From Escherichia coli (GTDB taxonomy: Bacteria > Pseudomonadota > Gammaproteobacteria > Enterobacterales > Enterobacteriaceae): a DNA stretch of 64,000 nucleotides. The notes beneath the pieces are model-generated. The model did not search any database. It was not told where the DNA came from and worked only from the letters and a program-made list of their open reading frames with translations. The translations under genes were made by a program, and so were the position numbers. Positions 57,375 to 57,428 of the stretch are shown here, piece by piece (the first letter of the stretch is position 1; every line of letters begins with the position of its first letter). The DNA lies in NCBI RefSeq assembly GCF_044324785.1, contig NZ_CP172127.1; one strand, 5' to 3'.

Positions 57375-57428
57375 GTACGAGATTGGCCAGTCAGCGCAAA
57401 CTGACTGGTCAGCAAACTGCATTATTTG

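Follow-up and report, generated by a model that had tools for sequence, protein, structure and literature searches.

In Escherichia coli, Rho-dependent transcripts end precisely, directly past stable stem-loops that carry neither a U-tract nor an upstream A-tract (Dar & Sorek, 2018; PMC6061677). The exonucleases PNPase and RNase II trim the RNA to these stem-loops, the sequence that follows contains more C than G, and only 24% of the elements are REP sequences. According to Wang et al (2022; bioRxiv 10.1101/2022.10.23.513370), Ju et al (2019) reported a second class, overlapping bidirectional terminators between convergent genes, as Rho-independent. Wang et al propose hairpin-induced pausing combined with head-on and trailing polymerase collisions, and also call the class Rho-independent. 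In their Fig. S7B, ychH-dauA is an example of a convergent pair of low expression whose transcripts end at such a terminator; the hairpin is drawn, and the SEnd-seq termination efficiencies are 66% (ychH) and 52% (dauA).

The 64,000-nt stretch of E. coli DNA analysed here (the window) is the reverse complement of ~1.256–1.320 Mb of K-12 MG1655 and contains hairpins at the convergent junctions dauA/ychH, ychN/chaC, and kch/yciY. With the class of Dar & Sorek, these three sites share the stem-loop, the lack of a U- or A-tract, the precise 3′ end, and bicyclomycin-sensitive read-through; moreover, the dauA/ychH hairpin is non-REP, as are most members of that class. The downstream C-over-G skew is shared by ychN and yciY, but there is no such skew directly downstream of ychH. 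The sites differ from that class in that exonuclease trimming is presumed for them, and in that two mRNAs running toward each other share a single hairpin. With the overlapping bidirectional terminators, in the form in which Wang et al present them, the sites have in common the convergent pair, a single hairpin within the overlap of the 3′ ends, and the dissimilarity to intrinsic terminators. In contrast to that class, described there as Rho-independent, they are followed by Rho-sensitive read-through, as seen in coarse windows of K-12 bicyclomycin data.

The classical precedent is trp t/t′ (Mott, Galloway & Platt, 1985, EMBO J 4:1887, as cited in PMC9927376), which, according to the citing work, likewise combines Rho-dependent termination downstream with 3′ exonucleolytic maturation back to the hairpin. 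Here, trp t differs by its short AUUUU tail, some intrinsic activity, and its tandem context. REP elements that stabilize 3′ ends are also U-less extragenic palindromes and block exonucleases, whereas the E. coli dauA/ychH hairpin is single-copy and the hairpins are unrelated to the REP consensus.

Since the class of U-less hairpins and the dauA/ychH site by name are already mapped and published, the finding itself is ordinary. The first-pass annotation of the window, which saw in such hairpins bidirectional or Rho-assisted stops or RNA-stability elements, thus repeats what Dar & Sorek (2018) and Ju et al (2019)/Wang et al (2022) had put forward and is not new. The hairpins account for the ends, and would account for the stability, of four to five E. 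coli mRNAs that have no canonical terminator, which adds little beyond annotation. The named sites do, however, illustrate how two published models disagree, one based on Rho plus trimming and the other on polymerase collision. We consider it likely that the three convergent hairpins are shared, protective stem-loops that define the 3′ ends of the mRNAs on both sides, with Rho terminating read-through and exonucleases trimming back.

U-less hairpins in three convergent spacers

The genes dauA (stop at 57374) and ychH (stop at 57429, minus strand) converge across a spacer of 54 nt, which harbors the hairpin CCAGTCAG-cgcaaa-CTGACTGG at 57387–57408. Its core arms (57387–57394 and 57401–57408) form an 8-bp stem around the loop at 57395–57400, and the complete element spans 57384–57411. 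In the dauA-sense (+) RNA, the stem reaches 11–12 bp through the pair G57386·U57409 (57384–57411, −17.6 kcal/mol), and in the ychH-sense RNA of this strain it comprises 8–9 bp. The pattern occurs once in 64 kb, with 0 occurrences expected. In the spacer of 43 nt between ychN (stop at 44322) and chaC (stop at 44366, minus strand), GGGGCGTCTGACGCCCC at 44331–44347 can form on both strands; it had been given as an 8+8 palindrome, but folds instead as a 7-bp stem with six GC pairs and a 3-nt loop. The third spacer, again of 54 nt, separates kch (stop at 11522) from yciY (stop at 11577, minus strand). Its hairpin spans 11548–11572, with the core GGGCACC-gcaat-GGTGCCC at 11551–11569 extended by A-U, U·G, and U-A pairs.

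The first-pass annotation had named these three hairpins and a fourth one downstream of ychE, and its sequences and coordinates are exact at all four sites. It had described the stems as GC-rich, which is only moderately so for dauA/ychH (five of eight pairs). Its placement at convergent junctions and its statement that flanking T-runs are absent hold for the three sites above (1–3 T in 8), but not for ychE.

These hairpins are stable and non-random. Perfect stems of 7–9 bp with loops of 3–8 nt arise in at most 0.5% of the dinucleotide shuffles of each spacer, and among 1,641 coding 54-nt windows of the same sequence, stems of at least 7, 8, and 9 bp are found in 0.85%, 0.24%, and 0.06%, respectively. 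Moreover, the ViennaRNA MFE z-scores of the hairpins lie between −2.7 and −4.0.

With stems of 7–11 bp and energies of −12 to −20 kcal/mol, all three convergent sites have the stem-loop of an intrinsic terminator. The U-tract of such a terminator (at least 5–6 U within 8 nt, including a proximal run) is missing at all three sites on both strands. Counted from the GC core, the following 8 nt contain 1–3 T on either strand, compared with 5–7 T at the canonical terminators of the window; neither an A-tract before the stem nor a proximal U run is present. A terminator scan that covered dauA/ychH and kch/yciY left both sites unflagged. A scan of the whole window at Rfam gathering thresholds returned nothing at the hairpins, with matches only to RtT, rdlD, and tRNA, and the TERMITe supplements hold no entry for any of these genes. 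Lacking the U-tract that releases RNA polymerase, the three hairpins are not autonomous intrinsic terminators. The canonical bidirectional terminators of yciA/tonB (8691–8722) and yciU/oppF (13739–13762) resemble them in that both mRNAs end at one palindrome within a short spacer between converging genes. These differ, however, by an A-tract upstream and a T-tract downstream, with 5/8 T on each strand as opposed to 1–3/8.

The ychE hairpin, AACGGAGC-atggca-GCTCCGTT, is located at 20058–20079 within the minus-strand 3′ element at 20038–20089 and has U-rich tails on both strands. After the GC core, 5/8 T are found on either strand, the same values as at yciA/tonB and yciU/oppF. Furthermore, the junction is tandem: ychE (stop at 20094, minus strand) is followed 737 nt away by oppA on the same strand. 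By its tails and its tandem junction, the ychE hairpin falls outside the U-less class, in which it had been misfiled; it likely represents a weak canonical bidirectional intrinsic terminator. The curated Term-seq ends of Adams et al (2021; PMC7815308) include no ychE 3′ end. The IS5U element found downstream of ychE in K-12 is absent from the window (~20100–20800).

3′ ends and bicyclomycin-sensitive read-through in K-12

Curated K-12 Term-seq 3′ ends (Adams et al, 2021; eLife, PMC7815308) were projected onto the window, with genes anchored on their stop codons. Window and K-12 coordinates sum to 1316498 from ychF to kdsA, to 1317568 from chaA to ychN, to 1319339 at ychE, and to 1320538 from oppA to trpC. 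The format of the Term-seq strings (50 nt, 3′ end, 10 nt) was verified on the prs terminator.

In the dauA/ychH spacer, the ychH transcript ends at 57379 on the minus strand (K-12 1259119(+), score 4004), at a distance of 5 nt both from the 11-bp stem behind it and from the dauA stop codon ahead of it, which is encoded on the opposite strand. The ychN transcript ends at 44352 on the plus strand (K-12 1273216(−), score 85855), also 5 nt past the stem. At kch/yciY, both partners have a mapped end, kch at 11575 on the plus strand (K-12 1308963(−)) and yciY at 11546 on the minus strand (K-12 1308992/3(+)), so that the two transcripts overlap by 30 nt across the hairpin. Folding of the four RNAs up to their Term-seq ends leaves single-stranded tails of only 2–5 nt. 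The Term-seq tables of Adams et al contain no 3′ end for dauA or chaC; the dauA 3′ end is known by SEnd-seq only, and at ychN/chaC one strand is detected. The first-pass annotation had proposed 3′-end mapping as the check on its reading, and had named read-through without 3′ ends as the outcome that would speak against it. As four mRNAs (ychH, ychN, kch, and yciY) have published Term-seq ends at a distance of 2–5 nt from their hairpins, this outcome does not apply.

Downstream of three of these ends, Rho termination regions for read-through transcripts are mapped within the opposing gene. For ychH, the region maps to 57143 on the minus strand (K-12 1259355(+), score 5.8), antisense to dauA and 236 nt downstream. 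The ychN region at 44711 on the plus strand (K-12 1272857(−), score 12.3) is antisense to chaC, 359 nt downstream, and that of yciY at 11465 on the minus strand (K-12 1309073(+), score 3.3) is antisense to kch, 81 nt downstream. Upon bicyclomycin treatment, the ratio of downstream to upstream coverage rises from 0.20 to 1.13 for ychH, from 0.08 to 0.98 for ychN, and from 0.53 to 1.75 for yciY (PMC7815308). As the ratios reach about 1 or more, essentially no stop occurs at or after the hairpins when Rho is inhibited. The behavior of ychH, ychN, and yciY in K-12 is therefore not Rho-independent, as judged in coarse coverage windows of 800 nt. In the kch and dauA directions, Adams et al report no Rho region. 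The canonical bidirectional terminators oppF/yciU, tonB/yciA, and ompW/yciE also precede Rho regions, and hence sensitivity to bicyclomycin does not single out the U-less hairpins. The C/G skew, a mixed and weak indicator of rut sites, was compared with an antisense background within 160 nt downstream and amounts to 1.55 for ychN (94th percentile), 1.77 for yciY (98th), and 0.98 for ychH (29th). All experimental data stem from K-12, and the ychH-sense stem of this strain is 5 kcal/mol weaker; the K-12 3′ ends and Rho regions presumably transfer to this strain.

The favored reading, with Rho and exonucleases acting around a protective stem-loop, would proceed as follows. RNA polymerase would transcribe the hairpin and often run on into the opposing gene, generating untranslated antisense RNA. 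Rho would load onto this RNA and terminate transcription within roughly 80–400 nt, whereupon PNPase and RNase II would trim the tail in 3′-to-5′ direction until blocked by the stem-loop, leaving a precise 3′ end 2–5 nt past the stem. The stem-loop would then shield the mRNA from further decay. A single palindrome can serve both strands in this manner because it folds in both transcripts. While the 3′ ends and Rho regions are mapped, exonuclease trimming and stabilization at these particular sites are what we infer from the described class. The three convergent sites, by their 3′ ends, Rho regions, and SEnd-seq data, are in line with the first-pass proposal of bidirectional, Rho-assisted, or stabilizing elements, which had not chosen between mechanisms; for ychE, the proposal is not supported.

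The same sites could alternatively be overlapping bidirectional terminators driven by collision, in which the hairpin pauses polymerase, a head-on collision follows, and a trailing polymerase dislodges the complex, with no need for Rho. Short spacers between converging genes are common to all three sites, and ychH-dauA has been published by name for this mechanism, its SEnd-seq efficiencies lying below those of highly expressed pairs as predicted. The overlap of 3′ ends across the hairpin that is the signature of the class is found at ychH-dauA and, with its 30 nt, at kch/yciY. However, bicyclomycin removes the coverage drop after ychH, ychN, and yciY, contrary to Rho independence. Collisions should moreover be rare where the partner is as weakly expressed as dauA and chaC, which are too weak for Term-seq ends, and yet the ychN end, with its score of 85855, is very strong. 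Further, SEnd-seq “termination efficiency” cannot separate termination from trimming, and the in vitro evidence comes from another terminator, ynaJ-uspE, which has partial U-tracts. We therefore regard collision as a rather unlikely main mechanism. Within the Rho-based reading, hairpin-induced pausing and head-on collisions could still make a contribution, and collision may do so above all at kch/yciY with its two strong 3′ ends. The site-level bicyclomycin data thus favor an involvement of Rho where the collision papers describe Rho independence, which is a modest, testable point.

Weak intrinsic termination, in which the hairpin, perhaps together with NusA/NusG, releases polymerase at short pyrimidine-rich tails, is a very unlikely explanation. 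The 3′ ends lie 5–6 nt past the GC core, comparable to the prs terminator with its 7 nt, the tails do contain some U (AUCUC, ACUAU, AAUAA), and in most other genera a canonical intrinsic terminator follows ychH. On the other hand, only 1–3 U occur within the first 8 nt, with no proximal U run and no A-tract, read-through under bicyclomycin is full, and U-less stem-loops go along with Rho dependence in Dar & Sorek (PMC6061677). Still more improbable is that the ends arise by endonucleolytic cleavage, with the stem as a target of RNase III or the flanks as targets of RNase E. Overlapping convergent transcripts could form double-stranded RNA, and synthetic dsRNA at 3′ regions is cut by RNase III, but stems of 7–11 bp are below the length of typical RNase III substrates and, on either strand, the 3′ ends map to single-stranded tails beyond the stems.

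The ychH transcript has an additional 3′ end inside the reading frame. A small hairpin, CGTTACTCGGTAACG, is located 32 nt into ychH at codons 7–11 (57674–57688, minus strand), and K-12 Term-seq places an end at its 3′ base (1258823(+), corresponding to 57675(−)). The score of this end is 9115, compared with 4004 for the primary ychH end; its Rho score is 0.29 and its intrinsic terminator score 1.17. It could reflect premature termination or a stable 5′ fragment.

Conservation and allelic variation downstream of ychH

With YchH as the anchor, we retrieved 80 species-level loci from Enterobacteriaceae, and in all 80 a hairpin is found within ~100 nt after ychH. Its type, assigned by a rule based on the GC core, varies, however. 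A canonical intrinsic terminator occupies this slot in 50 loci (Enterobacter, Lelliottia, Buttiauxella, Cedecea, Edwardsiella, and others), while the U-less form CCAG[T/C]CAG...CTGACTGG is present in 13 (Escherichia, C. koseri, C. amalonaticus, C. gillenii, and others). A related ACCGGTC...GACCGGT stem is found in three loci, all from Citrobacter, REP-like sequences in two (Salmonella diarizonae and C. sedlakii), and other or unclear types in the remaining 12. This turnover between canonical terminator, U-less hairpin, and REP suggests that termination modes are easily exchanged in evolution; as an account of a single genomic slot, it is a tidy illustration rather than a discovery. Two contigs bear the labels “Actinomycetes bacterium” MAG and “Chryseobacterium sp. 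18061”, but contain Enterobacteriaceae ychH loci with YchH 100% and 86% identical to that of E. coli, respectively; the labels probably reflect contamination or mislabelling of public assemblies.

In an alignment of 18 homologous hairpins from Escherichia and Citrobacter, 92.4% of the cells pair, compared with 9–38% when the register is slid; in the dauA-sense reading, pairing rises to 96.0%. Three pairs vary on both sides, among them a change from A-U to G-C, while the loop is free in sequence and 6–8 nt long. The variable loop length together with the compensatory change is in keeping with an RNA hairpin rather than a protein site with fixed spacing. A DNA-level element, either a palindrome bound by a protein or a dispersed repeat of REP type, whose RNA hairpin has no role, would account for the perfect inverted repeats and the conserved arm sequence, and in Salmonella and C. 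sedlakii the slot does contain a REP-like palindrome. However, the spacing of the arms by 6–8 nt across species and the one compensatory pair fit a hairpin and not a dimer operator, and the element occurs once in the window, has no Rfam match, and is single-copy in 5,421 of 5,426 E. coli genomes, so that this explanation is hardly credible. For dauA/ychH itself, both concrete candidates were rejected, a protein operator by the varying arm spacing and the compensatory pair, and REP identity by the single copy.

A 901-nt query spanning the dauA/ychH site finds a match in 5,421 of 5,426 complete E. coli genomes. In the same genomes, 13 copies of the dauA-ychH region reside on plasmid records, which may be F-prime-like captures or assembly assignments.

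The strain analysed here carries a minority allele. G at position 57386 results from an A>G change found in ~2% of complete E. coli genomes, and the 34-nt hairpin is identical in 108 of 5,423 records, while 5,189 records, K-12 included, differ by one base. The K-12 stem pairs perfectly over 11 bp. With the G allele, the hairpin loses 5.1 kcal/mol of stability in the ychH-sense RNA, compared with only 0.6 kcal/mol in the dauA-sense RNA. Other E. coli variants alter the loop or the flanks, and never the 8-bp core arms. Across the alignment, all four transitions in the internal stem produce G·U in the dauA-sense RNA and a C·A mismatch in the ychH-sense RNA. This asymmetry comprises four internal events versus one or two outer ones, too few for significance. 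It is tempting to consider, although we think it improbable, that selection on the shared hairpin differs between the strands and that natural alleles can tune it. If so, the palindrome would be maintained chiefly for the sake of one of the two RNAs, and the G allele would shift 3′-end protection or read-through of ychH while leaving dauA untouched. The allele would then represent a natural experiment that separates the protection model from the collision model.

At the ychN/chaC site, hairpins without a U-tract are also found after ychN in seven other genera, where they are not homologous to that of E. coli. A gene of 80–81 aa with a weak DUF1883 match lies between ychN and chaC in Salmonella, C. 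freundii, K. aerogenes, and Atlantibacter, but not in E. coli; the gene after ychN encodes a chemoreceptor in Enterobacter, Cronobacter, and Kosakonia. As other lineages carry an extra gene at this position, while ychN and chaC converge across 43 nt in E. coli, the junction and its hairpin are lineage-specific.

Other junctions in the window

Among the 12 convergent junctions in the window, 11 have a strong hairpin in the spacer. Textbook terminators flanked by A and T are found at yciA/tonB, yciE/ompW, yciU/oppF, adhE/tdk, and hns/galU, while four convergent hairpins are U-less, the three discussed above and one after chaA. The latter (46826–46858, 3′ of the chaA stop at 46819), which the first-pass annotation had not named, forms a 13-bp stem of −20.4 kcal/mol on the plus strand. 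A K-12 Term-seq 3′ end at 1270748(+), corresponding to 46820(−), lies on the opposite strand, 6 nt past the hairpin, and a Rho region at 1271269(+) is antisense to chaA.

The junction narL/ychO (stops at 42388 and 42389) is convergent with a 0-nt spacer and has no intergenic hairpin; its best structure, of −11.5 kcal/mol, overlaps the coding ends. A K-12 Rho region at 1274961(−), corresponding to ~42606(+), is antisense to ychO, and narL read-through seems to be ended by Rho alone. At RtT/narI, an imperfect REP-like palindrome, CGTTTACCGGACCTACA...TGTAGGTCGGATAAGCG (31039–31083), represents the sole REP-type element at a convergent junction in the window. Nearby, 30717–30979 contains one tRNA-Tyr gene and RtT, in comparison with two tRNA-Tyr genes in K-12. 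Similarly, the ldr/rdl toxin-antitoxin system is present in one copy (~47100–47340) versus three in K-12, and the ISZ element between adhE and tdk in K-12 is absent from the window (~24000–24200).

The window also includes the trp operon end. The trp t hairpin, GCCGCCAG-ttccg-CTGGCGGC, lies 3′ of trpA at 4130–4150 and is followed by ATTTT. The K-12 Term-seq 3′ end at 1316383(−) corresponds to position 4155, and the Rho-dependent trp t′ should be located in the 380-nt spacer between trpA and yciG.
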